A DNA stretch of 64,000 bases from Acidobacteriota bacterium (GTDB lineage Bacteria; Acidobacteriota; Terriglobia; Acidiferrales; UBA7541), in the NCBI GenBank assembly GCA_021788095.1, contig JAJYLB010000011.1, positions 28,593 through 92,592 of the forward strand. The letters run 5' to 3'. Below are positions 24,072 to 42,013 of the stretch, piece after piece. Position 1 is the stretch's first letter. Each line of letters begins with the position of its first letter. Below the pieces are notes generated by a model. It was not told the origin of the DNA and did no database searches. It worked only from the letters and a program-made list of their open reading frames with translations. A program made the position numbers and the translations under genes.

Positions 24072-24073
24072 CC

Positions 24074-24910
24074 CTAGAGTCTCCTTGTGACGCCGCTGTA
24101 GATCATTTCCAGCGCCATGAGCAGGATCACCGCGCTGAAGAAGAGCCGCAGCGGCTTGGTAGGAACCCGCATGAGCAGCCGCGCGCCGCTGAAAGCGCCC
24201 AGGAACACGCCTAGCATCACCGGCATGGTCAACCCTGGATCGATAAACCCTTCGAACAGGTAGATACCGGCGCTGGCGGCCGCCGTAATCCCGATCATGA
24301 AATTGCTGGTGGTAGTGGATACTTTGTAAGGCAGGCGCATGAGTTGGTCCATGGCCAAAACCTTCACGGCGCCCGAGCCGATGCCGAGCAGGCCGGAGAG
24401 TGTGCCCGCTGCCAGCATCAACGAAAACCCGCCCGTCACATTGTATACCCGGTACGGTTTCCATCCCCCGACGACGGGATAGCGGGATTCCAAGCGGAGG
24501 CGGACGGCCAGCGGGTCGGAGGGCCGGTCGGTCTCCTCTTCCTCCTGGCGGCGAAAAGAGAGGTACGCCGAATAGATCAAAACGAGGCCAAAGACAATCG
24601 CAATCGTGGCGGCGTGAAGGATGCCCGCGACGATGGCGCCGAGGATGGCGCCCGCCGTCGCCGCCACCTGCAGGAACATGCCGATGCGCAGATTGGTGTA
24701 CCCCTCGTTGAGATAGGCGGAGGCCGCCCCCGACGACGTCGCGATCACCGAGATCAAAGAGGCGCCGACCGCATAGCGCAGGTTCACGTGGAAGAGCAGT
24801 ACGAGCATGGGAACCAGAATGACACCACCCCCCAGGCCCGTGAGCGCGCCGATCACCCCCGCGAGCAGGGATCCTAGAAACAGGAACGCGGTGAACTGCG
24901 TGACGTGCAT
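24074..24910 (-). CDS. TSUP (TauE/SafE) family anion permease, paralog 1
   Basis: Two 4-TM halves, with GALTGLGGGVILVPMLV and MRLPYKVSTTTSNFMIGITAAASAG. The conserved central loop is FRRQEEEETDRPSDPLAVRLRLESRYPVVGGW. Confidence 0.85.
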   Translation of the reverse strand: MHVTQFTAFLFLGSLLAGVIGALTGLGGGVILVPMLVLLFHVNLRYAVGASLISVIATSSGAASAYLNEGYTNLRIGMFLQVAATAGAILGAIVAGILHAATIAIVFGLVLIYSAYLSFRRQEEEETDRPSDPLAVRLRLESRYPVVGGWKPYRVYNVTGGFSLMLAAGTLSGLLGIGSGAVKVLAMDQLMRLPYKVSTTTSNFMIGITAAASAGIYLFEGFIDPGLTMPVMLGVFLGAFSGARLLMRVPTKPLRLFFSAVILLMALEMIYSGVTRRL

Positions 24911-24922
24911 TTCAGCGGCCTT

Positions 24923-25765
24923 TCACGCCGCCCTGCCAGATTCCTGCCCGCCGGCGAGGTGGATCGCGACCTTCTTCACGCCCTCCACCGTCATGGCCGC
25001 CTGCCGGATACGGGCTTCCTCCGGCCTGCGCAGCGGCGAGCCGGGTCCGAGGCGCGGAAGCTGCCAGACGATGTCCACTTGGCCATTCTCCGCGCGCACT
25101 TCGAACTCGAAGCAGCGAAGTTCGGAATCCCTGGCCAGAGCGAGTTGGATCCGGCAGAGGAACGCGAACGAGCGCAGACCCTTCTTCACGTTCTCCGTCA
25201 CGGCGTACGCCGGCAGCGCGATGACGGCCGACACCATGGCGCAAGCGGCTTCAATCGTCACGTCGCGCAGATGGATGACGAGGTCGTAGTTTTTGGGGTC
25301 GCGCCAGTCTACTCCGTAAACGAATTTCGTCCATTGGGCGCGTTCGCGGTCCACAAAATCGAGGTACTCGCGAGCGGCGTCGGGAGCCAGTCCCTGCCGT
25401 TTCACCAGCTCGCGGATGCGGGTTTGCCGGGGTGCGATCAGGCGCACCCGCAAGACGCCGGGCAGGCCCTTGAGCAGGAAATGGCCGGCGTTACCGTGAT
25501 AGATCAACTTGCCGGTGACCGAGCGGTCGGCCAGTGCCGACTGCAAAGCGAGGAGGTAGATTCGGCGGTCTTCCCGCAAGGTCTCTACCGCTCCCGAGGC
25601 CATCTGGATCTTTTCCCGCAAGATGTCTTCCGATATGCCGAGCGTCGCCGCCGCCTCCACCAGCACTTCACGCGCCAGGACGGGATAATGCAGCCGGGCG
25701 CCCAGGCAGCGGGCCAACTCTTCTCCTCCACTCATCGATCCGCGCGAAATGGTGACAATCGCCAT
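24923..25765 (-). CDS. cytidylate-kinase-like family protein (degenerate P-loop), paralog 2
   Basis: MAIVTISRGSMSGG, LIYHGNAGHFLL, LRVRLIAP, WTKFVYGVDWRDPKNYDLVIHL. It is colinear with paralog 1. Confidence 0.7.
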   Translation of the reverse strand: MAIVTISRGSMSGGEELARCLGARLHYPVLAREVLVEAAATLGISEDILREKIQMASGAVETLREDRRIYLLALQSALADRSVTGKLIYHGNAGHFLLKGLPGVLRVRLIAPRQTRIRELVKRQGLAPDAAREYLDFVDRERAQWTKFVYGVDWRDPKNYDLVIHLRDVTIEAACAMVSAVIALPAYAVTENVKKGLRSFAFLCRIQLALARDSELRCFEFEVRAENGQVDIVWQLPRLGPGSPLRRPEEARIRQAAMTVEGVKKVAIHLAGGQESGRAA

Positions 25766-25831
25766 GGGAAACCTCCTCGGAGCAAGCTGCCTTTCCCAGG
25801 CTCCGGCTGGGCCAAGAGAGCTGCGCGAGGG

Positions 25832-26209
25832 TTATCCTCGCCCCGCGAAAAAGAGCGCATACGTCAGAAGTCCCAAGACCAGCGCCGTGATGATGACGAA
25901 ACTCTTGTCCCGGCTCAGGAGAAAGAGCAGGCCGGTTAACGCCACGCGGATCAGTTGCACCGCCACCAGGAAGATCAACCCGAGCTGAATCAGGCCCCTT
26001 CCCGACCCCCTCTTCATGTCGTCCCAAATCCCCGCGAGCGATCTCAGGTCGGAAGGCTCTCCCCGAAAGATTCGGTAATGAACCACGTCGGAGCCGTGGC
26101 GCCACAGAAAGATGGAACCACCCGCCAGAACCGTCACCGCCGAGGCCAATACCCCGACGAGCAGAACCATGCCGATCAGCTTTTCCATCCGGCGCATCAC
26201 CAGAGTCAT
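25832..26209 (-). CDS. DUF1634 small membrane protein
   Basis: 125 aa from ATG 26209, overlapping the TSUP stop in an ATGA motif. Four hydrophobic helices (MEKLIGMVLLVGVLASAVTVLAGG ... FVIITALVLGLLTYALFF). Confidence 0.65.
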   Translation of the reverse strand: MTLVMRRMEKLIGMVLLVGVLASAVTVLAGGSIFLWRHGSDVVHYRIFRGEPSDLRSLAGIWDDMKRGSGRGLIQLGLIFLVAVQLIRVALTGLLFLLSRDKSFVIITALVLGLLTYALFFAGRG

Positions 26210-27036
26210 CGCGTCGCACCCTTGTAGATCATCTCGAGAGCCATTAGCAGAACGATGGCGCTGAACAGAACCCGCAGCGGCTTGGCATTCACAAACATCA
26301 AAACCTTCGCCCCCACCACCGCCCCGCCGAACACCCCGAGCATCACGGGCAGCGTCAGGCCGGGATCGATGAAGCCGTCGTTGAGGTAAACGCCCGCGCT
26401 CGCCGCGGCCGTAATCCCGATCATGAAATTGCTGGTGGTGGTCGAGACCTTGTACGGAAGCCGCATGACCTGATCCATCGCCAGGACGTTGACCGCGCCG
26501 GAGCCGATTCCCAGCAGGCCGGACAACACCCCTGCGACGCTCATCAGCAGGAAAGAGGGAATCACGCGATACACCCGGTAACGCCGCCAGCCTCCCAAAA
26601 CGGGGTAACTGCTCTCGAGGCCGAGCCGGAGCGCCAGGCGGTCGGAAGGGCGATCCCTCTCGCTTTCTTCCTTCCGGCGAAAGGACAGGTAGCCCGAAAA
26701 CAAGAGGACGAGTCCGAAAACCATGAACAGCGCCGGCACGGGCACCACCGCCGCCAACAGCGCCCCTCCGATGCCCCCCGCGATACACGGCAGTTGCAGG
26801 AACATCCCCAACCGCAGGTTGGTGTAGCCCTCGCTCAAGTACGCGGCAGCCGCTCCGGACGACGTGGCGATGACCGCGATCAACGACGCTCCGGCGGCAT
26901 AGTGCATCTCCACGTGGAACACCAGGACGAGCATCGGGACGAGGATGATCCCCCCGCCCATGCCGGTCAGCGCGCCGACGGCTCCCGCCGCGCACGATCC
27001 CGCGGCCACCAGGAGCAAGAAAGGAGCCGTAGTCAT
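26206..27036 (-). CDS. TSUP (TauE/SafE) family anion permease, paralog 2
   Basis: Alignable without gaps to paralogs 1 and 3, and shares MRLPYKVSTTTSNFMIGITAAASAG and the DRPSDRLALRLGLESSYPVLGGW loop. Confidence 0.85.
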   Translation of the reverse strand: MTTAPFLLLVAAGSCAAGAVGALTGMGGGIILVPMLVLVFHVEMHYAAGASLIAVIATSSGAAAAYLSEGYTNLRLGMFLQLPCIAGGIGGALLAAVVPVPALFMVFGLVLLFSGYLSFRRKEESERDRPSDRLALRLGLESSYPVLGGWRRYRVYRVIPSFLLMSVAGVLSGLLGIGSGAVNVLAMDQVMRLPYKVSTTTSNFMIGITAAASAGVYLNDGFIDPGLTLPVMLGVFGGAVVGAKVLMFVNAKPLRVLFSAIVLLMALEMIYKGATR

Positions 27037-27082
27037 CGGGAACCTCCGCGCCCTTCGATCCTCGCCTGCATCTTCCTTTCCC

Positions 27083-27922
27083 TCATGGCAGCCAGCGCAG
27101 CACGCCCTTGACTACCATCTCGATCGCCATTGCCAGCACGAGCGTGCTGAACAGGAATCGCAAGAGCTTCGCCCGCACCACCAACAGGAGCCGCGCCCCC
27201 GCGATCGCGCCTGCGAAGATGCCCAGCACCGCCGCCATCGTGAGCACGGGATCGATGTAGCCGTGGCGAACGTAAATCCCCACGCTCGCGGCGGCGGTGA
27301 TGCCGATCATGAAGTTGCTCGTGGTGGTCGACACCTTGTACGGGAGCCGCATCACCTGATCCATCACCAGCACATTTACCGCGCCCGCGCCGATTCCGAG
27401 CAAACCCGAAATGATTCCCGCCGCTCCCATCAGCAGGGAACCGGGAACGACGCGGCGCACCTTGTAAAACTTCCAGCCCCCCAGCACGGGATAGCTGCTC
27501 TCCATCCCCAGACGGATCGCCAAGGGATCGGAGGGCCGATCGGGCTCCTCTTCTTCCCTCCGGCGAAAGGACAGGTAGCTCGAGTAGAGCAGGGTGAACC
27601 CGAAAACCATCATGAGCGCCGGCACGGGCACGTAAGCCGCGAGCATGGCGCCCGCGATTCCGCCCACGATCGAGGTGAGCTGGAGGAACATCGCAACCCG
27701 CAGGTTGGTGTAACCCTGGTGCAGAAAGGTGACGGTGGCCGCGGTCGAGGTCATCGTGACCGCGATCAGGGACGCCCCCGCCGCGTTGTGCAGGTTGACG
27801 TGCAGGAGCAGCACGAGGACGGGAACCAGGAGGATCCCTCCTCCTTCGCCCGTCAGCGCCCCCACCATCCCCGCGGCCGCCCCGCCCACAGCCACCAGGA
27901 ATAAGAACAGCCATGCTGCCAT
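27083..27922 (-). CDS. TSUP (TauE/SafE) family anion permease, paralog 3
   Basis: Same architecture, with the DRPSDPLAIRLGMESSYPVLGGW loop and MRLPYKVSTTTSNFMIGITAAASVG. Confidence 0.85.
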   Translation of the reverse strand: MAAWLFLFLVAVGGAAAGMVGALTGEGGGILLVPVLVLLLHVNLHNAAGASLIAVTMTSTAATVTFLHQGYTNLRVAMFLQLTSIVGGIAGAMLAAYVPVPALMMVFGFTLLYSSYLSFRRREEEEPDRPSDPLAIRLGMESSYPVLGGWKFYKVRRVVPGSLLMGAAGIISGLLGIGAGAVNVLVMDQVMRLPYKVSTTTSNFMIGITAAASVGIYVRHGYIDPVLTMAAVLGIFAGAIAGARLLLVVRAKLLRFLFSTLVLAMAIEMVVKGVLRWLP

Positions 27923-28085
27923 CGCCGATCTCCTGGGCCACTCCCTCGACGGCCGGCCGCCGGCCTATCGGACGAGGGGAAGCCGCTCGAGCGGAGTTCT
28001 TCTGGCCCGCCAGGAGTCCCTGGCGGCATTTCAGCGCTCGCGCTCGGGCGGTTTCCACCTCGTCTCCCTCATGGGCTCGCCGCGG

Positions 28086-29348
28086 CTAGCGCGCTCCGCC
28101 CGTGGCGGCGTTGTGAAGTTTCACCTCGACCTTCTCTTCCAAGTGGTCGTAATACTCCTTCAAGACGGCGATGACTTCCGGCTTGGAGAACTCCGCCGGC
28201 ACCGGCTTGCCTTCGCTCATCAGCTTGCGCAGCAAGGTCCCCGAGAGCAGCAGCCGGGCGCCGCCCTTGTAGTTGCCGTTGTCGTCGATCACCGCCTTGC
28301 TTTCGTGCGGGCAGGTTTTCATCGAGGCCATTGAGCCGCACTCGTAGCAGTAGAACGTCCAGTCCATCGAGAGCGGTTGAATGGCCAGGGCGCCGGCCGG
28401 CACTTCGCCAAAGATCTTCTGGGCGTCGAACGGGCCGTAATAATTCCCTACGCCGGCATGGTCGCGGCCGACGATCAGGTGGGAGCAGCCGTAGTTCTGG
28501 CGGAAGACGGCGTGCAGAAGCGCCTCGCGCGGCCCCGCGTAGCGCATCTCCATCGGGTACCCGCCCTGGATCACGCGGTCGCGGCGAAAGTACTTGTTCA
28601 CCAGGGCGTCGATCGCGCGCACGCGCACGTCCGCCGGAATATCCCCCGGCTTGAGTTTGCCCAGCAGTTGATGGATGTAGACGCCGTCGCACACCTCGAT
28701 CGCGATCCACGCCAGGTACGCATGGGAGTTGTGCATGGGGTTGCGGAGCTGCAAGGCCGCCACCGTGCTCCAGCCGCGCTCCTCGAAGAGCTTGCGCGCT
28801 TCCGCCGGCCGCTGGTAGATACCCGCGAATTCCTTCGGGAAGAAGGATTCGGACACCACCCTCACCGGGCCCGCCAGATTCACCGGGCCCTGCTCCATCA
28901 CCTTCTGCACGCCGGGATGGTTGGGGTCTTTGGTTTTGAAGACTTCCTTGCACTCGCGGTCTTTGTCGATCTTGTACTTTTCGGTCACCTTCATGGTGCC
29001 CATGAATTCATTCGTCTCGCTGTCCCAAAGCGCTACTTCCTCGCCCAGCGCCACCGCCGCGGCTAGGGCCTCGGTCGCGGAAAGCGTGATGGGAATGGGC
29101 CAGAACGCGCCTTTGCGGGAGGCGAGGCTCAGGGTGTCGCAAGTCGATTTCCAGTCCTCGGCGCCCATGAACCCTTCGAGCGGCGTGAATGCCCCGATGC
29201 CCATCATGAGCAGATCGCCGGTCTCCCGGCTCGTCATGGGAACTTTCTTGAGTTTGGCGGCGCGCTGGGTCTCCTCCCGGGCGGCGGCGGGATCGAGCAA
29301 CAGCGGCTTCAATTCCGGACTTCCATGCGGCGGTACGAGTTGGCTCAT
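28086..29348 (-). CDS. sat: sulfate adenylyltransferase (ATP sulfurylase)
   Basis: Motifs [21 protein letters not shown] and the N-terminal PUA-like domain. About 420 aa, as in dissimilatory Sat. Confidence 0.95.
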
Positions 29349-29394
29349 GGCAAATCTCCTTTTCGCGGAACTGCTTGGGAACTCGATCGTTTCC

Positions 29395-31323
29395 TCAGTG
29401 CACCTCGCTGACCTTGGGCGGCGGCAAGATCACGAGCCGGCCGGCCGGGGCGTGCGGGCTGTAAAGGTAATGGCGCGTGTCGGAGAAATTCAGCCGGCCC
29501 TTGTGGCATTCGGCGCAGCGGGCGATTTCCGGCTTTTTCTCTCGCGCGGCCACTTTCACGTGGCAGCCGTTGCATACCTCGTGCATCGCGTCGACGTAGG
29601 AAACGGCGTTGTAATTCGGGATCTCGATCGTGGCCCCGGCGGGCACAAGATTCTTGTGGCAATCGGCGCAGGGCTTCACGTGCGCCGAGGTGCGTGCGTA
29701 TCCCGGCTCGTGACACTCGACGCAGGCGAGATTCGCGCCGTGGGGCGAAGCGTGCCAATCGTGGCGGGAAGCGTCGCTCTTCTGGTACATGTCGCGATGG
29801 CACGCGTAGCAGCCGGAGTCCTGGTCGTGCGGCATGTTCATGTGGTGGCAGAGCACGCACGACTTCTCCCGGCCATTCCGCTCGATTTCCCGCTGGTGGT
29901 AGAAGGTCACGCCGTACCGCGTGAGGTCGCCATCGATGTAGAGCACGCCCCGGGGCAATTCCCCCGGCTGTCCGAGACTGGCGGCTTCCGAGACCCCGCT
30001 CCTCAAGTACCCCGCGTCGCCCCGCGCGCGATGGACGGGCGCGGGCACCGAGCCTTGCCGGGCCGCCAGGGGACTGCCCAGGAGAGCGAAACCTGCGCCG
30101 GCGGCAAATACGAACCCCAAGGAGTACTTGACGCGGCCGGCGACCGCCGGCGTGCCCAGCCAAGTGAAGCCCACCTTGTCGAATTCCGGCAGCTTCCGCG
30201 GATCGGCTTCCGGATCCGCGGGCCGGCTTTCCCAAACCCTGAAGTGTTCTATCATGAACAGAAAGGCGAGGGTCGCCGCCGCTACGATGCCCAGGCTGAC
30301 CGCGATTTCGGTCCACTTCGGCGCGTAGAGAGGGCCGCCGCGGCCGATGTCGGCCAAGCCGCCCACGTCAATTCGGTTCAGAACGACACCGGCCACGCCA
30401 ATGGCTGCCGCGGCCCCTTGCCACCCCGCTTGGCGCCGGAACCGCGTAGCGGACATCAAGGCGAGCGGCAAAATCGCCATGAGCGCCAGCTCCAGCCAGA
30501 ACAACTTGGCCTGCCACGCCCCACTCGCGAGGTAGTGGAGTTGTCCCCGAGCTGCCAGATCGCCGAACCGCGCTGCGACGTACACCGCCAGAACCCAGCG
30601 CGTCGCGGCGCCCAAGGGAGCCAACAAGCCGGTTTCCGGTTTGCGCCGGTAGAGGTATGCGGTGACGTGGCTTTCGAGGATCACCATCATGAGTCCCAGA
30701 GCGACCGCGGAGATAAAGAACAGCACGGGCAGGAGGGGCGAATACCAGAGCGGATAAAGGCGGTAAGGCATGATCAGGAAAAGCGAGCCGAGCGAGGACT
30801 GATGGAGCGTGGAAAGCGCGACGCCGAGGATGACCAAGGGGATGCGCAGCGTGAGCAGGAAACGCCGTAGGCTGGCCAGAGCGGAGATCCCCTCTGTCGG
30901 CACGGGAAAGAATTCCAGCATCAGCACCGTGAGGTAGAGCATCACGCACCAGCCGACTTCGAAGAGCGGCGAGCGCGGATTCCAGTAGATCGTTAAGTGC
31001 CAGATGTTCCAGGGCAGTCCGAGATCGAAGAGCAATCCGACGACGACGGCAACGTAGCCGAGGAAAGCGGTTAGAACCGCGGGCCGAACGATCGAGTGAT
31101 ACTCTTCCATCTTGAAGATATAGACCGTTGCGGTAACGACAAAGCCGCCGGCGGCCAGCGCGACGCCGCCCATCACGTCGAATCCGACCCACAGACCCCA
31201 AGGCGTGGCATCGGAAAGGTGCGTGGTCGCGCCAAGGCCGAAGGCGAACCTCGCCGTGGCGATGGCCGCTGCCAGCCCCACCATCACCCACAAAACGAGC
31301 TTTAGCCGAACCACCCTATCCAT
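29395..31323 (-). CDS. NrfD/PsrC-type integral membrane subunit fused to a C-terminal hexahaem cytochrome c domain
   Basis: The N-terminal ~400 aa form a polytopic NrfD-like domain ([31 protein letters not shown]). The C-terminal ~170 aa carry six CxxCH motifs: CVLCH, CYACH, CVECH, CADCH, CNGCH, CAECH. Confidence 0.8.
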
Positions 31324-32106
31324 TTACTTCTCCGGCTCCCTCTGGCCCTTGGCTTCCCCTGCGGCTTTCTCCGCTTGCAGGCGGTTGCGCCGCTCGATGA
31401 TCCAGTACAGACCGCCCATGGCCGCGCCCATCCCCAAAAAGGCAAAGGGCACGGACTCCATGGCCAAGGTCGTCGTCTGTGGCAGCGGTTCCTTACCGAA
31501 ATGCTCGCCATAGGTCAGGAAGGACAAATCGATGCCGGAGATATAGAGCACCGACGTGCCTCCCACTTCCGATTCACCCCAGACCCGGTCGAGGTACTTG
31601 CCCGGATTGCGCCGAATCCGGCGGTGAGCCTCGGCGAGCAGTTCGTCGCGGTCGCCGAAGATGGTTGCTTTCGCCGGGCACGCCTCGGTGCATGCCGGTT
31701 GGCCGCCCGCTTTGATCCGGTCGTAGCACAAGACGCATTTGCGAACGTACGGAACCACGTTGCTCCACTCGTAGCGCGGGATACCGAACGGGCAGGCCAT
31801 CATGCAGTAACGGCAGCCAATGCACTTGCTCGTATCGCAGAGCACCGGCCCGGCCGCGGTTTTGTGCATGGCGCCCACGGGGCAGGCATCGACGCACGCG
31901 GGATCGAGGCAATGCCGGCATTGCTTGCGCACGAAGGTGTTGTCCGCCGCGTCCACCACCGAACACCAGTTCTCGGCAGACAGCCCGTCGCCGAAATCCC
32001 ACCGGCGCGGGATGTCTCTCTCCAGGCGGTTCACCCTTTGGCAAGCGATCGCGCATTCGCTGCAGCCAGTGCATTTGGTGGTGTCGGTCAGGATGGCCGG
32101 TTTCAT
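31324..32106 (-). CDS. 4Fe-4S ferredoxin-type subunit (NrfC/HmcB/DsrO-like) with a C-terminal TM anchor and no obvious Tat signal
   Basis: It starts directly at the first cluster motif (MKPAILTDTTKCTGCSECAIAC). Further CxxCxxCxxxCP groups follow, then a C-terminal helix VPFAFLGMGAAMGGLYWII. Confidence 0.8.
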   Translation of the reverse strand: MKPAILTDTTKCTGCSECAIACQRVNRLERDIPRRWDFGDGLSAENWCSVVDAADNTFVRKQCRHCLDPACVDACPVGAMHKTAAGPVLCDTSKCIGCRYCMMACPFGIPRYEWSNVVPYVRKCVLCYDRIKAGGQPACTEACPAKATIFGDRDELLAEAHRRIRRNPGKYLDRVWGESEVGGTSVLYISGIDLSFLTYGEHFGKEPLPQTTTLAMESVPFAFLGMGAAMGGLYWIIERRNRLQAEKAAGEAKGQREPEK

Positions 32107-32876
32107 CGCTCCGACCCTCCTTTCCCGGCCGCTCCTTCAGGCAGCTCGGCGGTAAGACGGGCTTTCGGCAGCCAGGTAGGCCGGTCGCCGAACCCGAGCG
32201 TTTCGGCCACGCGGTCGCCGGCTCCCGCCGGGAACTTCCACGCGACAGCCGTCACCAATTGCGAGAGCGGCGCCAGCACGCAATGCGCGAGCTTGGTGAA
32301 GGGAATCATCAGGAGGATGAGGTCACCCGCGTACAGGTGGACCAGCAGGAATTCCTGGTAGGTCCGCGGACTGAGGATGGCGTTCGAGGCGATATAGCCC
32401 GTGACGAAGGGCGCCGCGATCAGCAGGGGCCAAAGGAAATCCTGCGCCTTGCTTATCTTTCGCGCCGCGGGGGAAAGCAGCCGGCCCAAGAAAAGTCCTG
32501 CCCCGGCAAAGATCACCAGCAACGTGAGCCAGTTCGCCAGCCGCCGCGGCAGAGCCGCCCAGCCAATCCCCAGCGCGTTGCGCCACAGAAGGATGTGCGA
32601 GGCCAGGAAGAGGGGTGTAACGATCATCCCCGCGTGGAAGAGAAAGGAAATCAGGCTGTAGATCGGCCTTTGCCGCCACAAACGCGCCATCGGGAACAGC
32701 CAGCCGAGGGTCTGCCGGCGGACCTCCTTCCATGCCACGATCTTGTCCGAACTGTTCTGGTATCCCTCTCGAACGCCGGCGAGCGTCAGGAGGACGATGC
32801 GCAGCAGCCCCAGCGCCATCAAGGCGAACGAGAGGCGGAACAGCGGGCCGCGCGCGAAATCGATCCAGGCGGTCAC
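32103..32876 (-). CDS. NarI/DsrM/HmcE-like membrane cytochrome b subunit
   Basis: The GTG start at 32876 overlaps the upstream stop in a GTGA motif. It is polytopic with conserved His residues (SFLFHAGMIV, SHILLW, LLVHLYAGD, KLAHCVLAP). The longer track ORF overlaps the upstream gene out of frame. Confidence 0.7.
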   Translation of the reverse strand: MTAWIDFARGPLFRLSFALMALGLLRIVLLTLAGVREGYQNSSDKIVAWKEVRRQTLGWLFPMARLWRQRPIYSLISFLFHAGMIVTPLFLASHILLWRNALGIGWAALPRRLANWLTLLVIFAGAGLFLGRLLSPAARKISKAQDFLWPLLIAAPFVTGYIASNAILSPRTYQEFLLVHLYAGDLILLMIPFTKLAHCVLAPLSQLVTAVAWKFPAGAGDRVAETLGFGDRPTWLPKARLTAELPEGAAGKGGSER

Positions 32877-34450
32877 GGTGATTCTCCCTGCCGGCCGGGC
32901 GTTTCGCCCCCTTCGATCCCTTCGCTTGCCGGCGCTTGGGCGGAGGCGGCTTCGGCCGCCGAATCGGGAGGCAAAACGATGGCCTTGTAAATCAAGTCGT
33001 GCAGGCCGACGATTTCGCAACTTACGCCCTGGTCTTCCATCAGCTCGCGCAGTTGCTTCTTGCAGTTGGCGCAAGGGGCGACGCAGTAATTCGCCTCCGT
33101 CCTCCGGATCTGCTCGGCTTTCAGCCTGCCGCTTACGGTGGTGCGGTAGGGGCGAACCTCGTCGAGCGATACCGTTCCCGCGCCGCCGCCGCAGCAGAGG
33201 TTGCTGCGGCCGTTCGGAACCATTTCCACGTACTGGGGGCAGAAAGCTTCGAGCGTGCTCCTCGGCTGCCGCACGATCCAGCCCGTGCGCGCGATGTTGC
33301 AGGGATCGTGATACGTCACCCTCTCCGAGACGATTTTCGGATCGAGCGGGATCCGCCCTTGCCGGATCGCCCGGTCGGTGTACTCGAGGATGCTGACCAC
33401 CGGCAGGGCATCCTTGCCGCCGCAAAACGCGGGATAGAAAAACTTCGCGGTGCGCGCCGCGTGCCCGCATTCGCCGATGATGATTTTCCTGGCCTTGAGC
33501 CGCTCCGCCTCCGCCCGCATTTTGCGGAGAACGTGCTCCATCACCTGATCGCTATAGAACAGGCCGTAATTGATCCCGTCGTAATACTGGCTGCCAATCG
33601 TCCAGCTATCCCCCGTGGCCTTGAAGGCGGCGGCGATGCCCTTCAGCGTCTCCGCCTCCATCATGAAGTCGGAAACGGAAGTGAAGAAAATGTACTCGGC
33701 GCCTTCCCGATCCACCGGGAAAGGCACGTGCACGCCTTTTTCGTCTTGGATGTCTTCGGTGAGGAATTCCAGCGTATCGAGCAGCGCGGGCAGGGGAATC
33801 GCCGAGGTATTGGCCGTCTTGCCCGTCAATTGCTCCCGCGTGCTGACCACCAGGGCCCGCGGCGCGATGCCGATTTCCGAGAGGATGTAGCGTCCCAGGT
33901 GGGCGATTAGCGCGTGGTCGATGCCCATCGGGCATTCGAAATGGCAGCGGCGGCAGGCGGTGCAGTTGTAGTAGGAATCCGCCATCTCCTGAATCTTCTC
34001 GTCGGTCAGGCCGGGATCGGCCAGAACGCGCGCGCGCAGTATCCCGGAAAGCGTGAAATGCCTGCGGTAAATCGAGAGAAGCATCTCCGAGCGGTAACAA
34101 GGGACATCGCGAGAATCGCCCGTGGCGTCGTAAATGGGGCAGGCGACGGCGCAGCGGGCGCAACGCGCCGCCACACGAACGTAGTGGTCGAGCGCAAGGC
34201 GATAGTTCGTATGCTTGAGGATGGAAGCGAAGACCTCGAGGAAGCGCCGCGGGCGGTCCGCGACGTCGCAATCCTCCACGTGGTAGCGCACCGGCAGGCG
34301 CTGCCGGGCCATCGCGTCGGGTTTCTTGGGCGTCGAGTACGCCTTCTCCCGCTCGCCCGGTTCGAGCGGCCGCGTGAGCGACTTCATCACCGATCCCATT
34401 CTGGTCTGCCCGTTTCGAAATCCCTTGGCTTCGCGAGCGACTTCCGCCAT
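32873..34450 (-). CDS. HdrD/DsrK/HmcF-like CCG-domain iron-sulfur protein (third DsrK paralog)
   Basis: Ferredoxin motifs CARCAVACP and CTACRRCHFECP. CCG-domain motifs HDPCNIAR, LCCGGGAG and CAPCANCKKQL. Confidence 0.8.
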   Translation of the reverse strand: MAEVAREAKGFRNGQTRMGSVMKSLTRPLEPGEREKAYSTPKKPDAMARQRLPVRYHVEDCDVADRPRRFLEVFASILKHTNYRLALDHYVRVAARCARCAVACPIYDATGDSRDVPCYRSEMLLSIYRRHFTLSGILRARVLADPGLTDEKIQEMADSYYNCTACRRCHFECPMGIDHALIAHLGRYILSEIGIAPRALVVSTREQLTGKTANTSAIPLPALLDTLEFLTEDIQDEKGVHVPFPVDREGAEYIFFTSVSDFMMEAETLKGIAAAFKATGDSWTIGSQYYDGINYGLFYSDQVMEHVLRKMRAEAERLKARKIIIGECGHAARTAKFFYPAFCGGKDALPVVSILEYTDRAIRQGRIPLDPKIVSERVTYHDPCNIARTGWIVRQPRSTLEAFCPQYVEMVPNGRSNLCCGGGAGTVSLDEVRPYRTTVSGRLKAEQIRRTEANYCVAPCANCKKQLRELMEDQGVSCEIVGLHDLIYKAIVLPPDSAAEAASAQAPASEGIEGGETPGRQGESP

Positions 34451-34501
34451 CCTGGCGAGCCGCGAAGCCCCTGCCCGCGGGCGTATCCGGCATCGTGGCC
34501 G

Positions 34502-34903
34502 TCACGCATGCCCGCGTTCCCGCACGCCAAGAAGCTGGTGGATCTTGGCCAGAAGCTTTTCACGGTCCAAGGGCTTGTCGAAGTACCCTGCGGGCGGGCG
34601 CACTTGCTTGCGCGTCTCGATGAACTGCTTGAAGTCATGCGTAATCCCGGTGATGATGATGACCGGGACGTTCGACGTTACCGGGTCCGTTTGCAAGTCC
34701 CGGAACATGCGAACTCCCGATTCCTTCGGCATCGAGATGTCGAGCGTGATCAGATCCGGATGATTCGCCTTCGCCTTTTCAAAGCCCTCGCGGCCATCCG
34801 GCGCCGTGATCACGGCGAAACCCTCGTCCTGCAAAAACGCCTTGAGGTAGGCGGTCTGGTCCGGCTCGTCTTCGACGACCAGGATTGTCTTCAGGGTGGT
34901 CAT
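34502..34903 (-). CDS. single-domain response regulator (receiver only)
   Basis: ILVVEDEPD, DLITLDISMP, PVIIITG. 133 aa with no output domain. Confidence 0.85.
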   Translation of the reverse strand: MTTLKTILVVEDEPDQTAYLKAFLQDEGFAVITAPDGREGFEKAKANHPDLITLDISMPKESGVRMFRDLQTDPVTSNVPVIIITGITHDFKQFIETRKQVRPPAGYFDKPLDREKLLAKIHQLLGVRERGHA

Positions 34904-35424
34904 GGGGTTACCCCCCTCTTCTTTTTCAAGGCATCGAGTGCCCTTTCGACTGCCTCACGGTCGGCGCCGGAGACGGCGCGAGAGACTTCCTGGCGCAAGT
35001 CTTCGGATCGAGCTTGCGGTGGCTCCTGGGCCTGCAGGCCCAGGATGCGGCGGACGGCAGCCACGTAAGTGTCGGGATGCAAGGGCTTCTCCAGATACAC
35101 CCCGGGGCCCGACATCGTCATCTCTTCGAAGTCCGCCTTGCCCAGGTCGTCCCGCGCGTGACCGGTGACGATGAGGACCGGGATCTTCGAGAGCAGTTTG
35201 TCCTTCCGCAGTTCGTGATAGAACTGGCCTCCGGAATACCGGGGCATCACCAGATCCAGCGAAACGAGATCCGGCGGATCGCATCTCACCTTCTCCAGCG
35301 CTTCCAGGCCGTCCGCGGCCGTCTCCACAACGAATCCCGCATCCGTGAGCGCGCTCCTTAAGTACTCGCGGATGTCCGGCTCGTCATCCACCACCAACAC
35401 CCGCCTCGGCTGATCGTCGTTCAT
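34900..35424 (-). CDS. response regulator, receiver domain plus a short helical tail, no DNA-binding domain
   Basis: VLVVDDEPD, DLVSLDLVMP, PVLIVTGH. A ~50-aa C-terminal tail has no recognisable output domain. Confidence 0.85.
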   Translation of the reverse strand: MNDDQPRRVLVVDDEPDIREYLRSALTDAGFVVETAADGLEALEKVRCDPPDLVSLDLVMPRYSGGQFYHELRKDKLLSKIPVLIVTGHARDDLGKADFEEMTMSGPGVYLEKPLHPDTYVAAVRRILGLQAQEPPQARSEDLRQEVSRAVSGADREAVERALDALKKKRGVTP

Positions 35425-36920
35425 GGCAGCTTCCCCTCCGCTGGCACGCTGGCAGGAGGCGCCGCGAGCGCCTGCAAGCGGCTGCGCGGCAGCCGGATAC
35501 GAAAAATCGATCCCTGCCCGGGAACGGACTCGAAGTCCATCCGCCCTCCATGCTCCTGCACGATCTTCCGCGTCGTCAGGAGGCCCAGCCCGGTTCCCTT
35601 TCCTCCCTTGGTGGTAAAGAACGTGGTGAAGATCTTGGATTTGATCTCCTGATCGATCCCGCAGCCGTTATCGGCGACTTCGAAAACCAGGTCGTTACCC
35701 ACGTCCCGGGTGCGCACGCTTACCTTGCCGCCCGTCTGGCCGGGTTTGGTGGCGGCGTCGATACCGTTCGAAACAAGGTTGGTCAGGCAGGTCTCCATGC
35801 CGCGTGCATCGAGCATCGCTTCCGAAACGTCTGGCGAAGCTTCCAGGACGAGGTCGACGCCTTGATTCGCTGCGGCATCGTGGTAGAGGTCCACGACGTT
35901 GCGAGCCAGGGCTTTCGGGTTGGCTGGCGCAAGCTCCGGCGGCCGGCCTTTGGCAAAACTGAGGAAATCCTTCACCAGTGTGGTCGTCTTCTCGAAGTTG
36001 CGCTTCAGGATTTCCCAGCCGTTCACGATGCGCTCGGCATCGCTTCGTGCGAGGCCGGTGTCCACCATGTACATCCCGCCCTCGAGCCCCATCAGCAGGT
36101 TCTTGATCGTGTGCGCCAGCCCCGCCACGGTCTGGCCGACCGCCGCCAATCGCTCCGCGTCCAGCCGCTCCTGTTCAAGCTGCTTCATCTCCCGAAGGTC
36201 CTGCATCAACGCCGCCCTGCCCAGCTTCGTTCCCCGGCTCCTCAACTCGACGGCGGAGAACCGAACGGGGACCTCCTCGCCGCCGACGGCGTGCAGGGAG
36301 GTTTCCGGCATGTTGACGACGGTCCCGTTTTCCTGCGCCGGCGCGAAAAATTCCTGGGGAAGCATCGCGCGCAGCTGGTCCGGCGCGGGCGGTCGAGCCG
36401 ATGTCCAATGGAGTAGGGCGCGTGCAGCCGGATTGATGATGCGAATCTCGCCGGCCGTATCCACGGCCAGGATGCCCGATGCCGCATTCCGCACCAGGCT
36501 CTCGTAGAAATCGTCGGCTTTCCTGAGGTCCGTCTCTAACTCGCGGACTTCCGTGACGTCGGCAGCCATCTCGATGACGTGAGCCACGCCGTGCGCGCCC
36601 CGGGAAAGCGCCGCCGTGGTGACCACGTAGTACGCTGGCGTCCCATCCTGGCGGAGGCCCACCTGCTCGGAGACATGCTCGGTGCCGTCCCGAAAGGTGA
36701 GCGCCGCGGGACAGCGCGAACACGGTTTCTTCCGCCGCTTGTAAACCTGGTAGCAATACCTGCCCTCAGCCTCGCCGAAGGCTTGACGGAATTTCTCATT
36801 GGCCCTGACGATGCGGAAATCCCGGTCGATCACCGAGACGTAGCACGGCACGCGCTCGAAGAGCAGATTGTATTGGCGCTGCCAACGCCCCGTTTCCCTC
36901 ATGCGGGCCCATTCCCTCAT
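35421..36920 (-). CDS. cytoplasmic PAS-PAS histidine kinase with a four-Cys first PAS domain
   Basis: The ATG at 36920 shares one nt with the upstream TGA. H-box GLAHTIKNLL and HATPase motifs NLVSNGIDA, DNGCGID and GGKGTGLGL are present, with no TM segment. Cys26, Cys56, Cys67 and Cys70 lie in PAS1 (CYQVYKRRKKPCSRCP). Confidence 0.8.
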   Translation of the reverse strand: MREWARMRETGRWQRQYNLLFERVPCYVSVIDRDFRIVRANEKFRQAFGEAEGRYCYQVYKRRKKPCSRCPAALTFRDGTEHVSEQVGLRQDGTPAYYVVTTAALSRGAHGVAHVIEMAADVTEVRELETDLRKADDFYESLVRNAASGILAVDTAGEIRIINPAARALLHWTSARPPAPDQLRAMLPQEFFAPAQENGTVVNMPETSLHAVGGEEVPVRFSAVELRSRGTKLGRAALMQDLREMKQLEQERLDAERLAAVGQTVAGLAHTIKNLLMGLEGGMYMVDTGLARSDAERIVNGWEILKRNFEKTTTLVKDFLSFAKGRPPELAPANPKALARNVVDLYHDAAANQGVDLVLEASPDVSEAMLDARGMETCLTNLVSNGIDAATKPGQTGGKVSVRTRDVGNDLVFEVADNGCGIDQEIKSKIFTTFFTTKGGKGTGLGLLTTRKIVQEHGGRMDFESVPGQGSIFRIRLPRSRLQALAAPPASVPAEGKLP

Positions 36921-38527
36921 CAATGCCACTCCCACTCGAGGAAGCCCGGCTTCACGTCCGACATGGCATTCACGATCAGCTCGACCAACCCGCCGTAGAG
37001 GATCCGGTGTTTCTCCCAGAGGCCGTAATAGGTGAACATGTCCCGGAACTGGCCTTTGCAGTTGCTGCACGGGGCGCAGACGTATTTCGGGATCGAGGGG
37101 TCGAGGCAATCCTCGAAAGCGGTGAGGATTTGCAAGAGTTTCTTGCGGCCCGACACCTGGAAGCGCCAGTCCTGGAAATTGTTCCCGCTGATGATGGCGA
37201 ACCCGCTTCCCCCGCCGCAGCAATAGTTCATCACGCCGTGAGGTTCCATCTCCCTGAACTGCGGGCACAGCTTGCGAAGGATTTCCCGCTGCGGTTCGAC
37301 CACGCCCATCAAACGCACCAGATTGCAGGGATCGTGCAGGGTCACGGGGAAATCGTTGCGGGCGGGGTCGAACCGGATCCGGCCGCTCGTGACGATGTCG
37401 CGCAAGAGCGTCAAGGAGCTTTCCCGCGGGATGTTGAGATCCCCCGTGAGCACGCGGTCGGCGATCAGCGTCAGGGCCTTGTGCGCGTGACCGCATTCGC
37501 CCAGAACGATCTTCTTGACTTTGAGTTTGCGCGCCGCTTCGGCGTGCTTGATCGCCACACGCGCGAATTGGGCGTCGTCGTAAAACACCCCGTAGTTGAT
37601 CGAGTCGTATCCCGCCAGCTCCGAAGACAGCGTCCAGGAAATCCCGGCGGCATTCAGCAGGAGGGCGAAGGCGCCGGGATTGTCGGGCCAGGCCACGATC
37701 TCGCCCGCATTGTGGATCAGCAGAATATCCGCCCCCTCGACGTCCCAGGGAGTCTTCACCGCAATGCCAGCCCGCTCGCTCGTGTCCTCGTCGATGAAAT
37801 CCATGTTGTCTCTTACGGCTGCGGCATTCATCCCCGTGGAAGAGCCGACGCGGAGCTGCAGCATGGACCCTTTCTCGTGCAGCTCTTTGGCGGTGATCCC
37901 CATCTCCTGGCTGAACACTTTCCGCAATTCGCGGGCGACCAAGCCGTTGTCGGCCCCGATGGGACACGCCTGGGCGCAGCGCCGGCACAGGTTGCAGCGG
38001 TAGCAAAGCTCGAGCAATCGGGCGACCAGAGGCCAGTTGAGTTGGATGTCGCCGTGCTGCCAGGCCGAGAGCAAGCCCCCGCGCTTGACGTATTTGAAGT
38101 AGAGGCGGCGCACGATCTCGGTGCGGAACGTGGGGCGGTAAATCTCGTTCCGGCCGCTGGCTTCGAAAATGTGGCAGGCGTCGGAACACGTCTGACACTT
38201 GGTGCAATGCTCCATCGTCAGCACGAGCGGTTGGAGGAAAGTCCAGTTGTTGTCCCGGTTGAACAGCTTCTCGAGGCCCGAAAGGAATTTCCCGACGAGT
38301 TCGTCTTCCTCCTGCTTGGTTTTCGGTTGTGGGAAATTGACGACGCACGTGTCGTCAAGGAAGCATTCGCACCCCGCCAGGGTTTGCGCCGGGAGCGGAG
38401 GCCAGTCGTGCTGGCCGGCGGGACCGTCGTAGGGCGGCGGCAGCGGCATCAGGTCCCTGCCCTCAAGATGAGTCAACGGTTCCCTGGCGGTCTTGGAGAT
38501 ATCCGCGACCTTGATTTTCTGCCTCAT
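36920..38527 (-). CDS. DsrK/HdrD-like CCG-domain iron-sulfur protein (second DsrK paralog)
   Basis: The ATG at 38527 overlaps the upstream stop (ATGA). Motifs CTKCQTCSDACH, CYRCNLCRRCAQACP, HDPCNLVR, NYCCGGGSG and CAPCSNCKGQF. Confidence 0.8.
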   Translation of the reverse strand: MRQKIKVADISKTAREPLTHLEGRDLMPLPPPYDGPAGQHDWPPLPAQTLAGCECFLDDTCVVNFPQPKTKQEEDELVGKFLSGLEKLFNRDNNWTFLQPLVLTMEHCTKCQTCSDACHIFEASGRNEIYRPTFRTEIVRRLYFKYVKRGGLLSAWQHGDIQLNWPLVARLLELCYRCNLCRRCAQACPIGADNGLVARELRKVFSQEMGITAKELHEKGSMLQLRVGSSTGMNAAAVRDNMDFIDEDTSERAGIAVKTPWDVEGADILLIHNAGEIVAWPDNPGAFALLLNAAGISWTLSSELAGYDSINYGVFYDDAQFARVAIKHAEAARKLKVKKIVLGECGHAHKALTLIADRVLTGDLNIPRESSLTLLRDIVTSGRIRFDPARNDFPVTLHDPCNLVRLMGVVEPQREILRKLCPQFREMEPHGVMNYCCGGGSGFAIISGNNFQDWRFQVSGRKKLLQILTAFEDCLDPSIPKYVCAPCSNCKGQFRDMFTYYGLWEKHRILYGGLVELIVNAMSDVKPGFLEWEWH

Positions 38528-39465
38528 TTCTTGCCGCCCTGTGCTGGATTGGTGATCGCGATTTCCGCCCACGTCTTGGCGCCATCGGCGCCGATGTGCG
38601 GCGCGGCCCACGTCGGCCGATAGGTCAGCATCTCGGCGATCCTCTTCTCGATCCCGCTTCCCCTCCCATTGGGCTGGTCGCCCCAGCGCACGGAGTGGTA
38701 GGTGAAATACTTCGCGATGAAATGCGACATATGCGTCAGCGGGATGTAGGCCACGAGCAGCGCGCCCAGTACCAAACCGAATCCGAAGAGCGCCGGGACC
38801 CGCAACCCTGCGTCGAAAGTCAGCAGGCCTCGCGCGAGGGCGAACGCGCTGAAGGAACCCTTGCCGCGCCAAAGGTAGCCGGCGGCCAAAAACCCAGCTG
38901 CGACGATGAAGAACAATAGATTAAAGATGTCGGCGGGCGTCGTATAGGGCTTGAGATCAGCGTCCGTGAGCCTCTGGAGGAGCAAACCCGCCGCGCCCGC
39001 CAGCGTCAATCCGATCCCGGCCGGCCCGAGGATCACGCAGGCGCCGTGGAGAACGATGCCTGGCCCGGCAGCCCAAGATCGAGGTGCGACGATCCAGAGG
39101 AAGGCGCTCGAAAAGAGAAGCGCTGTCGCGCCAAACAGCAGGTAGAGACCGAGGTGAAAGGGATAGGAGCGATACCACGTCTTCTTCTTGAACTCCCAGA
39201 GCCCTTTCAGGAAGAGCATCTCCGCCAGCATGGCCTTCAGCTCGCCAGACCGGTTGAATTTGGCGGGTTGGGTCCACCAGTCCTTCATTTCAAAATACGA
39301 ACCGCCATGCGCTGCTCGCCCCTTCTCCTCGTGAGGCACGGGGTAGATTTCCCAGCGCAGGTGCAGCGGCAGCCGCGCATAGCCCGCGGCTCGAACGATG
39401 CTGGCCACGACAAAGACCGCCAAGCTGGCGTACAAGACGGCATAGATTGCGATCGTGCTCACCAT
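38524..39465 (-). CDS. DsrM/NarI-like membrane cytochrome b (second DsrM paralog)
   Basis: Polytopic, with N-terminus MVSTIAIYAVLYASLAVFVVASIVRAAGYARLPLHLRWEIYPVPHE and PFHLGLYLLF. It is paired with a DsrK-like gene. Confidence 0.75.
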   Translation of the reverse strand: MVSTIAIYAVLYASLAVFVVASIVRAAGYARLPLHLRWEIYPVPHEEKGRAAHGGSYFEMKDWWTQPAKFNRSGELKAMLAEMLFLKGLWEFKKKTWYRSYPFHLGLYLLFGATALLFSSAFLWIVAPRSWAAGPGIVLHGACVILGPAGIGLTLAGAAGLLLQRLTDADLKPYTTPADIFNLLFFIVAAGFLAAGYLWRGKGSFSAFALARGLLTFDAGLRVPALFGFGLVLGALLVAYIPLTHMSHFIAKYFTYHSVRWGDQPNGRGSGIEKRIAEMLTYRPTWAAPHIGADGAKTWAEIAITNPAQGGKK

Positions 39466-40810: not shown

Positions 40811-40820
40811 CGTCCACGCC

Positions 40821-41597: not shown

Positions 41598-42013
41598 CGC
41601 GCGGCCCCTTTCCCGAGTGCGGGGTCCACGTGGCAATTCCAGCAGTAGGGCGTTCGCGCGCCGACGTAATCGTGGCAGCGATCGCAGAATTCGCGCTTGT
41701 CGTGGCAAGAGAGGCAGGTCTTCGTCAGGCTCTTCGGGTAGGTCTTGCCGTCGTACGCAACGTAGGTCGGGTTGTTTTCGCGCACCGCGCTTTGGCGCCA
41801 GTCCAGTAACAGTTGCATGTGGGAACCGCGCATGAAATCGAGTGGAGCCACGCACTGCTTCGCGTGGGCCGGCAGCACGAGCGCCGGAGGCCGCGTATTG
41901 GCGTGAGTTTCCCAATCGCGCCAGGTGGGAAGGGTCGCCACGCCGACGAACAGAAGCAATCCGCCGAGGATCCAGAACTTGTCACGCATGAATCGCCTCG
42001 GCTCCCTGGCCAA
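41594..42013 (-). CDS. dsrJ: DsrJ, trihaem cytochrome c subunit
   Basis: N-terminal membrane anchor and three haem motifs CLSCH, CDRCH and CWNCH. The more likely start is the ATG at 41989 (MRDKFWIL). Confidence 0.85.
   Translation of the reverse strand: MAREPRRFMRDKFWILGGLLLFVGVATLPTWRDWETHANTRPPALVLPAHAKQCVAPLDFMRGSHMQLLLDWRQSAVRENNPTYVAYDGKTYPKSLTKTCLSCHDKREFCDRCHDYVGARTPYCWNCHVDPALGKGAAR

Follow-up and report, generated by a model that had tools for sequence, protein, structure and literature searches.

A candidate Hmc/Dsr-type membrane redox complex with an NrfD-hexahaem cytochrome fusion in an acidobacterial sulfate-reduction island

Our analysis concerns a 64,000-nucleotide (nt) stretch of DNA, hereafter the window, from an Acidobacteriota bacterium (Bacteria; Acidobacteriota; Terriglobia; Acidiferrales; UBA7541), which spans positions 28,593-92,592 of the forward strand of contig JAJYLB010000011.1 (assembly GCA_021788095.1). 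At 29395-34450 on its minus strand lie four overlapping or abutting genes, here called K, M, O and P. We consider it moderately probable that their products form a single membrane-bound redox complex of the Hmc/Dsr type, in which a hexahaem cytochrome c tethered to the NrfD-like subunit P would help to link quinone to disulfide chemistry at K. The individual parts are ordinary; what distinguishes the module is the fusion of NrfD to a cytochrome, an iron-sulfur subunit that has no leader peptide and a set of dedicated regulators, and it belongs to a widespread, uncharacterised family that is represented in metagenomes only.

K (32873-34450) is an open reading frame (ORF) of 525 amino acids (aa) that encodes a putatively cytoplasmic CCG-domain Fe-S protein of the HdrD/DsrK/HmcF/TmcB type; judged by its homologues, its true start is probably M22 at 34387, which would give a protein of 504 aa. 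M (32103-32876; 257 aa, GTG start) encodes a NarI-type membrane cytochrome b, O (31324-32106; 260 aa) a leaderless, tail-anchored ferredoxin subunit with four predicted [4Fe-4S] clusters, and P (29395-31323; 642 aa) a protein in which an NrfD domain leads, through an 11th helix, into a c3-like hexahaem domain. The TGA of K is overlapped by the GTG of M (GTGA), the TGA of M by the ATG of O (ATGA), and the ATG of P follows immediately on the TAA of O (TAAATG). An earlier, sequence-only reading of this DNA had described these junctions and had proposed the four subunit types; the junctions were found as described, and Pfam and NCBIfam profiles, which we used for all domain calls (equivalog cut-offs are those of NCBIfam), bore out the assignments. 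Scans for promoters, terminators and sigma-54 sites over 27900-37200 and over the entire window returned nothing exceeding chance.

The defining feature of the module is subunit P. Residues 1-361 (30241-31323) make up a 10-helix membrane domain of the quinone-interacting NrfD type, residues 362-391 (30151-30240) a conserved linker from helix 10 to helix 11, residues 392-415 (30079-30150) the 11th transmembrane helix and residues 416-642 (29398-30078) a presumptively periplasmic region that carries the c3-like hexahaem cytochrome c domain. Pfam NrfD matched at aa 38-318 (7.6e-21; 75.5 bits against a gathering threshold of 25.8), which places P in the NrfD/PsrC superfamily (PF03916), and class III cytochrome c (PF02085, Cytochrom_CIII) matched at aa 528-607 (5e-9; 36.9 bits against 22.9). 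Exactly six CxxCH motifs are present (aa 489, 505, 534, 552, 584 and 603), as the sequence-only reading had counted for the C-terminus of the fusion, and since none of the six varies in alignments of 33 or of 85 sequences, they do not represent a chance pattern. Five further histidines (H476, H494, H521, H524 and H581) are invariant among the 85 sequences. The haem region gave a single, weak match in PDB sequence searches, to the basic cytochrome c3 2bq4 (E 0.0046).

The fused architecture is common among relatives of P. The best 120 database relatives were all 602-696 aa long, 60-100% identical and of the same NrfD-plus-cytochrome architecture, and a second search from an ignavibacterial member yielded another 120; among the matches listed, more than 200 were independent full-length homologues that share this Pfam architecture. 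When the C-terminal 247 aa of P served as the query of an exhaustive search, only 312 representative clusters emerged, whose full-length members (~600-690 aa) carry the haem match at the C-terminus; most of the shorter hits that were inspected resemble fragments, and one may be a stand-alone cytochrome. That a frameshift or an error of assembly had joined two separate genes, a possibility that the earlier reading had itself raised, is vanishingly improbable: one ORF of 602-696 aa recurs in more than 200 independent clusters and 80 genome loci, and both the linker and the 11th helix are conserved, so that this explanation is excluded.

The linker between helices 10 and 11 carries the motif W-E-x-R-P-x-D-P-x-A-D-P-x-K-L-P-E-F-D...W-L-G-x-P (aa 362-391), in which W388 and G390 are invariant and W364, P368, P371, P379, F381, L389 and P392 recur in 90% or more of the 85 sequences. 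The helix count and the bias of lysines and arginines would place this linker in the cytoplasm, where it may serve as a docking site for K. Helix 11 is supported by a hydropathy peak at residues 402-420 and by a helix at 392-415 (pLDDT ~90) in an AlphaFold2 model, and follows the ten helices of the NrfD domain. The first such model, built from 33 sequences, was poor (pLDDT 57.8) and was remade with the 85-sequence alignment (mean pLDDT 75); pLDDT was ~90 over the membrane domain and a moderate 55-73 over the haem domain, for which no fold match was obtained from this model. The topology of P was assessed from hydropathy, this model, Foldseek and counts of lysine plus arginine. Foldseek matched the membrane domain best to ActC of alternative complex III (6btm_C, 8k9e_C and 6f0k_C; TM-score ~0.62), then to PsrC (2vpw_C), and ActF also matched. 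Lysines and arginines number 15 on the N-terminal side of the membrane and 5 on the opposite side. Attachment of c-type haem takes place in the periplasm, and the Fe-S partner of ActC in structures of alternative complex III docks on the periplasmic face. Because the helix count, the charge counts, the ActC-like fold and the periplasmic site of haem attachment point the same way, we infer that P has its N-terminus inside, with the hexahaem domain and the face that docks the Fe-S subunit both probably periplasmic. This is the same orientation as that of ActC, and in both alignments the most conserved loops of P are the periplasmic ones.

The hexahaem unit also occurs unfused. A Thermodesulfobacteriota metagenome-assembled genome (MAG; locus L049) encodes, besides its fused module (5339-10371), a second, Tmc-like set on the opposite strand (13190-16034), comprising a CCG protein (K'), a cytochrome b (M') and a stand-alone hexahaem cytochrome of 197 aa with a signal peptide, the last of which is 33% identical to the haem domain of P. 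The signal peptide on this unfused cytochrome suggests that helix 11 of P may derive from a retained signal anchor.

Conservation of the cofactor ligands extends to the other three subunits. K matched Pfam CCG (2.3e-10; 40.8 bits against a gathering threshold of 20.6), which assigns it to the HdrD-type CCG-domain proteins (PF02754), together with Fer4_8, and no transmembrane segment was predicted. Its cysteines 97, 100, 104, 163, 166, 169, 173, 328, 384, 419, 420 and 460 are invariant among 49 homologues; they account for two cluster motifs, for C328 and for residues 384, 419, 420 and 460 of the five CCG-domain cysteines, the last of which, C463, is kept in 46 of the 49. The sole match in a PDB sequence search with K was 9ojn_A; the same search with M gave nothing useful. 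M has five hydrophobic segments and four histidine ligands for two haems b, with H94 kept in 44 of 44 homologues and H81, H180 and H198 each in 43. O matched Pfam Fer4_11, 16 cysteines are invariant among 49 homologues, and its best PDB match was FdnH (1kqf_B; E 1.5e-31), with the C-terminal helix included in the alignment. Since the ligand residues are conserved across homologues, the predicted cofactors of the module are six haems c in P, four [4Fe-4S] clusters in O, two haems b in M, and two [4Fe-4S] clusters plus the CCG cluster in K.

No leader is possible at the N-terminus of O in the window, since its own ATG is where the frame begins and the first cysteine comes as early as residue 12; the alignments with the HmcB and HybA profiles begin at profile positions 38 and 41, respectively, and the leader part of the profile is absent from both. 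At the other end, a transmembrane helix (aa 219-237) is followed by a charged, RR-rich tail, and in all phyla the helix leads into W-I-I-x-R-R-x-K and a charged stretch of ~20 aa or more, the N-out, C-in pattern of FdnH, HybA and HmcB. The most upstream possible start lies at most 35 residues before the first cysteine in 47 of 55 module O proteins, the distance being 10-13 residues in 37 of those 47; the other eight reading frames, all from GC-rich loci, are over-extended. Compared with the ferredoxins of the HybA/HmcB type, which carry a twin-arginine translocation (Tat) signal, O therefore has the C-terminal helix and no leader, in the window and in all homologues with a readable start, and by these reading frames leaderlessness is a trait of the whole family. 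The sequence-only reading had remarked on the leaderless O with its terminal helix and on the Tat-like leader of the neighbouring DsrO (MKITRKEFLKL), and had asked on which side of the membrane O resides; O was as described, DsrO does start with that leader (at 41597), and the topology question proved to be a real one that extends to the whole family.

Tail-anchored ferredoxins normally carry a Tat signal of their own or hitch-hike on a signal-bearing neighbour (Gallego-Parrilla et al. 2024, PMC10924467). FdnH is such a leaderless hitch-hiker, and a leaderless tail-anchored ferredoxin with a HybB-like partner, exported together with an FeFe hydrogenase, has also been described (PMC10924467). 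Our scan for a Tat carrier near the module, using a regular expression and hydropathy over 1074 ORFs in 80 loci, found a credible motif only in two P proteins. The N-terminus of P was considered as a Tat signal anchor and rejected as a family trait, given that the twin arginine occurs in just 16 of 151 members.

We nevertheless regard it as likely that O is periplasmic, by a route as yet unexplained, because of the N-out, C-in pattern of its tail and the ActC-like orientation of P. The alternative is a cytoplasmic O that wires K or another cytoplasmic partner, with the hexahaem domain contacting the quinone site of P directly. There is a parallel for such an arrangement, as the Fe-S subunit of SoeABC is thought to stay in the cytoplasm, and it would account for the lack of a signal peptide in any O homologue with a readable start, of a Tat partner in the 80 loci and of the twin arginine from most P proteins; the strongly conserved linker of P, which appears to be cytoplasmic, could dock such a partner. 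However, the conserved W-I-I-x-R-R-x-K motif and charged tail of ~20 aa or more follow the pattern of FdnH, HybA and HmcB, P is oriented like ActC, with its Fe-S partner on the periplasmic face, and the periplasmic loops of P are the most conserved. On balance, a cytoplasmic O seems unlikely, though still worth serious consideration.

Comparison with curated families indicates that the module is a mosaic, as the best NCBIfam matches differ by subunit: an Hmc/Hyb-type NrfCD pair (O and P) is combined with a cytochrome b and CCG pair (M and K) of the Dsr/Tmc/Hmc type. P scored 302 bits with HmcC (cut-off 550), 275 with HybB (450), 105 with QrcD (570) and 29.5 with DsrP (350), and O scored 233 with HmcB (420), 190 with HybA (263) and 104 with DsrO (200). 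K scored 286 with DsrK (400), 197 with TmcB (735) and 186 with HmcF (750), and M scored 134 with TmcC (240) and 131 with HmcE (275) and did not match DsrM. By these scores no subunit reaches an Hmc, Dsr, Tmc, Qrc or Hyb equivalog cut-off, and the module, which would work like these complexes, is a member of none of them. The earlier description of a compact Hmc/Dsr-type complex thus agrees with the homologies, the conserved ligands and the tethered cytochrome, but not with membership in either family, every subunit falling below the equivalog cut-offs.

The Hmc complex of Desulfovibrio (HmcABCDEF) has the same ingredients, namely c haems, a tail-anchored four-cluster ferredoxin, NrfD, a NarI-type cytochrome b and a CCG protein; among curated families, O and P match HmcB and HmcC best, and HmcE comes close to being the best match for M. 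In Hmc, however, the cytochrome is a separate protein with 16 haems, whereas the module has six haems fused to NrfD (the HmcA model scored 18 bits against a cut-off of 400). HmcD has no counterpart, as no extra ORF lies between the four genes, the gene order is F-E-B-C-like rather than ABCDEF, and O lacks the signal-peptide region of HmcB. DsrMKJOP combines the same five functions, in the form of a cytochrome b, a CCG protein, a cytochrome c, an Fe-S protein and an NrfD protein, and DsrK is the best match for K, but the window encodes the true complex separately (39509-44601), where it passes all equivalog cut-offs. The module has a c3-like hexahaem domain instead of the trihaem DsrJ (41594-42013 in the window) and no DsrJ-like gene, and the Tat-like leader of DsrO has no equivalent in O. 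Within the window, K is 30% identical to DsrK and 32% to the DsrK2 of a second DsrMK-like pair, O is 35% identical to DsrO, and BLAST matched neither P to DsrP nor M to DsrM; the low identities and missing matches indicate that the module is not a recent copy of the dsr genes.

Tmc (TmcABCD) resembles the module in its CCG protein, cytochrome b (TmcC is the best match of M) and c3-type cytochrome, but the module adds an NrfC-NrfD pair, has its cytochrome fused to NrfD and includes neither TmcD nor a separate cytochrome gene. In Qrc (QrcABCD) and alternative complex III, as in the module, a helix holds a hexa- or pentahaem cytochrome at the membrane, alongside a 10-helix NrfD protein and an Fe-S subunit; QrcC, for its part, is not known to carry a signal peptide and in this resembles O. 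In those complexes the Tat signal is carried by a molybdopterin-like subunit (QrcB, ActB1), which the module lacks; conversely, the module has an additional cytochrome b and CCG part, and its scores are low for QrcC (69.5 bits; cut-off 400) as well as for QrcD. Finally, O resembles HybA (of Escherichia coli hydrogenase 2) and FdnH in fold and C-terminal anchor, being leaderless like FdnH, and P resembles HybB; the differences are that HybA has its own Tat signal, that FdnH has the carrier FdnG and that HybB has no cytochrome domain. Across these comparisons, the fused hexahaem domain would stand in for the separate cytochromes HmcA, DsrJ, TmcA or QrcA.

We surveyed the family in one genome per GTDB species, obtaining at least 600 stretches, of which 595 were confirmed relatives; locus arrangements were determined by tblastn with the window proteins against the best 80 of these (at least 595) relatives, each with 10-kb flanks, and ligand conservation from alignments of 49 (K and O) and 44 (M) sequences. 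The 80 loci, all from MAGs, span about ten phyla: Acidobacteriota, Zixibacteria, Ignavibacteria with Kapabacteria and Kryptonia, Bacteroidota, Planctomycetota, Gemmatimonadota, Chloroflexota, Eisenbacteria, Thermodesulfobacteriota and others. A cultured representative was sought, and all named hits were MAGs. The order K-M-O-P is kept in 64 of the loci, and nine are interrupted by contig ends. Five planctomycete loci (L051, L057, L059, L061 and L063) have M-O-P without K; in L061 the genes upstream encode unrelated secreted proteins. Two loci have an orphan P with K, M and O absent nearby (L026, 10001-11896; L029, 3335-5227), and in L018 a second, divergent fused-P paralogue (12262-13644, minus strand) adjoins the module.

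The conserved neighbours of the module are regulators. In the window, a PAS-PAS histidine kinase (35421-36920, minus strand; Pfam PAS_4, PAS and HATPase_c) and two response regulators consisting of stand-alone receiver domains (regulator 1, 34900-35424, Response_reg 9.4e-23; regulator 2, 34502-34903, Response_reg 4.3e-22; both minus strand) precede K, and the kinase start overlaps the dsrK2 stop. Homologues of the kinase occur in 32 of the 80 loci, of receiver 1 in 45 and of receiver 2 in 47, and a sigma-54 activator adjoins the module in 20. The first PAS domain of the kinase has a cysteine motif, C26...C56-x10-C67-x2-C70, in which, across 30 kinases from several phyla, C56 and C67 never vary and C70 is retained in 29; the pattern may mark a metal, Fe-S or redox sensor. 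From their recurrence beside it, the kinase and receivers likely regulate the module. Sulfur genes are less constant companions. The gene for ATP sulfurylase (sat; 28086-29348, minus strand; NCBIfam sulfate adenylyltransferase 474 bits, above the cut-off) lies 46 nt downstream of P in the window, as the sequence-only reading had pointed out, but it adjoins the module in only two of the 80 loci, so that this adjacency is lineage-specific and sat is context outside the conserved module. Genes for dsrAB, dsrC or dsrMKJOP were found within 10 kb in 11 loci (from Acidobacteriota, Kryptoniota, Bacteroidota-labelled MAGs, Eisenbacteria and others), and likewise in L081.

Searches of the literature found no description of the NrfD-hexahaem fusion or of the four-gene complex, although mention in Duarte et al. 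2021 (BBA) or Pereira et al. 2011 is possible. In databases, P is named "Ni/Fe-hydrogenase cytochrome b subunit", "HybB-like" or "NrfD/PsrC". A supplementary table of Dyksma & Pester 2023 (PMC10564751) lists four homologous genes under "Hyb" (genes 670-673 of the MAG CO124; 1428, 765, 753 and 1842 bp, on NODE_7_length_92532), the last of which, gene 673, is labelled hydB despite cytochrome c3/c7 Pfam hits. The sequence-only reading had allowed that the family might already be characterised under another name; it has been tabulated and named in this way, and we found no characterisation of it. These four genes correspond to our locus from GCA_031292755.1, in which a P protein (P0072; 613 aa, 62% identical to the window P) is preceded by genes of 475, 254 and 250 aa: the gene lengths and the 92,532-bp contig agree. 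In that table, the remark that "no accessory proteins were identified" refers to gene 1838, a second Hyb-type NrfD gene of CO124, and not to genes 670-673 (PMC10564751).

In this sulfate-reducing acidobacterial MAG, the module genes are expressed under anoxia only. Expression values of genes 670-673 were ~0 in four oxic samples and 1-7.6 in four anoxic samples, with log2 fold changes of -4.1 to -5.9 and adjusted P values of 1.8e-12 to 1.7e-4 (PMC10564751). We took the last four columns of the table as the anoxic samples, since the values for dsr and qrc are distributed in the same way over the columns and qrc was, according to the paper, transcribed under anoxia (PMC10564751).

In the mechanism we propose, two pairs of subunits would cooperate. 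The dihaem cytochrome b M and the protein K, with two [4Fe-4S] clusters and a catalytic CCG cluster, would form a pair of the DsrMK/HmcEF/TmcCB type, and the ferredoxin O and the NrfD protein P an NrfC-NrfD pair of the HmcBC/HybAB type, with P extended by helix 11 and the hexahaem domain. The six haems of P would receive electrons from periplasmic carriers and pass them via the four clusters of O to the quinone site of P, as in the Qrc-type menaquinone reductase. Quinol would then be re-oxidised at M, whose two haems b would carry the electrons across the membrane to K, where a cytoplasmic disulfide or trisulfide, in this genome most likely that of DsrC, would be reduced, possibly with energy coupling. 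The chain might also run in reverse. Expression of the module would be confined to anoxia and probably be controlled by the adjacent two-component system.

Several observations weigh against this proposal of a single complex with K-linked disulfide chemistry. Its support comes from homology and one published transcriptome, and none of the subunits reaches a curated cut-off of Hmc, Dsr, Tmc, Qrc or Hyb. The haem domain of P was modelled with moderate confidence only, and a periplasmic O would lack a known export route, with neither a signal peptide of its own nor a Tat-bearing partner nearby in any of the 80 loci. The five planctomycete loci without K imply that a cytoplasmic disulfide step is not universal, and dsr, apr and sat genes are all absent from the surrounding 10 kb in most of the 80 loci. 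These last points would be expected if the module were instead a general anaerobic electron-transfer system that connects the quinone pool and periplasmic cytochromes with a thiol/disulfide couple unrelated to DsrC, its tie to sulfate reduction in the window being a matter of local gene arrangement. Such a system might take part in sulfur oxidation, or it might deliver electrons outward, from the cytoplasm or from quinol, to acceptors in the periplasm or outside the cell. It would fit the rarity of adjoining sat and of nearby dsr genes, the presence of the family in Gemmatimonadota, Planctomycetota, Chloroflexota and others, the M-O-P form, neighbours whose conservation is limited to regulators, the DsrL-like gene in the window, and the proposal, in a study of peatland acidobacteria (PMC6018796), that these organisms possibly run the pathway in reverse. 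On the other hand, in several phyla the module lies immediately beside dsrAB or dsrMKJOP, the four genes share their anoxic expression conditions with the dsr genes of CO124, and DsrK is the closest curated family of K. We therefore treat a general module as a serious but minority possibility.

The Hyb-type names raise a different alternative, that O and P are the membrane part, as HybA and HybB are for hydrogenase 2, of a periplasmic hydrogenase or formate dehydrogenase whose genes lie elsewhere and which, itself exported by Tat, would carry O across by hitch-hiking. HybA and HybB are the second-best families of O and P, both the databases and Dyksma & Pester place P under Hyb, FdnH, the closest solved relative of O, is a leaderless hitch-hiker (PMC10924467), and the export of a leaderless ferredoxin and HybB-like partner with an FeFe hydrogenase provides a precedent (PMC10924467). 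However, the gene clusters that recur across the 80 loci include no hydrogenase or formate dehydrogenase, the window ORFs scanned include no hydrogenase, and no credible Tat motif was found except in P. The remark on missing accessory proteins concerns CO124 gene 1838 rather than genes 670-673, the fused hexahaem domain already gives a periplasmic entry for electrons, and K and M are strictly co-inherited with O and P. A hydrogenase or formate dehydrogenase partner is thus highly improbable, and a four-subunit complex that joins periplasmic cytochrome, quinone and K remains our preferred interpretation.

The module lies within a complete dissimilatory sulfate-reduction island (apr-qmo-dsr-sat) on one strand of the window. 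From high to low coordinates, its order is dsrN, aprBA, a CxxCxxCC protein, qmoABC, dsrAB, a DsrL-like gene, dsrC, dsrMKJOP, a second DsrMK-like pair, the PAS kinase, the two receivers, K-M-O-P, sat, TauE permeases and siroheme-related genes. The second, divergent DsrM/DsrK pair (36920-39465, minus strand) comes directly after dsrP, and its DsrK2 scores 318 bits (DsrK cut-off 400); it matches the dsrM2K2 noted for peatland Acidobacteria by Hausmann et al. 2018. Figure 2 of that paper also has "syntenic genes 1-4 of unknown function", which might correspond to K-M-O-P. The DsrL-like gene (45433-46641, minus strand), between dsrB and dsrC, encodes an NAD(P)-binding Fe-S flavoprotein of 402 aa, possibly a short form or one with a mis-set start. 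The CxxCxxCC-domain (PF03692) protein (53987-54817, minus strand) lies between aprA and qmoA; the CO124 table lists a 798-bp gene with the same PF03692 annotation beside qmoA, and it was expressed under anoxia (Dyksma & Pester 2023, PMC10564751).

Immediately downstream of sat, three TauE/SafE-family permeases (24074-24910, 26206-27036 and 27083-27922) are interleaved with cytidylate-kinase-like PF13189 genes (23235-27922, minus strand). As in the window, this pairing accompanies the P0072 module of CO124, where it lies upstream (L083, 1704-3626). The permeases may transport sulfate or sulfite, with the paired protein acting as a regulator. Also near the island are a catalase-peroxidase (KatG-type, 762 aa) and a Fur-family regulator (17720-20476, minus strand), a pair that fits an oxygen-exposed lifestyle.

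Models of energy metabolism in sulfate reducers derive almost entirely from Desulfovibrio, and for dsr-carrying lineages known from metagenomes, such as peatland Acidobacteria, no system has been described that connects periplasmic donors and the quinone pool with the cytoplasmic DsrC cycle. In its broadest form, our proposal would make the fused module the main energy-conserving link of periplasmic donors, menaquinone and DsrC in sulfate and sulfite reducers outside Desulfobacterota (Acidobacteriota, Zixibacteria, Kryptonia, Ignavibacteria and others), filling the role of Qrc, Tmc and Hmc together, with O reaching the periplasm without a signal peptide or an encoded Tat carrier. We think this full version quite doubtful; if true, the export route or hitch-hiking arrangement of O would be one not yet described. 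In either case, that an Fe-S subunit anchored by its tail lacks an export signal throughout the family, and has no gene for a carrier close by, poses a testable puzzle for Tat and membrane-protein biogenesis. The current mis-annotation of P as a hydrogenase cytochrome b subunit hides the module from metabolic reconstructions, and these four genes, conserved and induced by anoxia, encode a concrete candidate for the link between donors, quinone and DsrC in these lineages.

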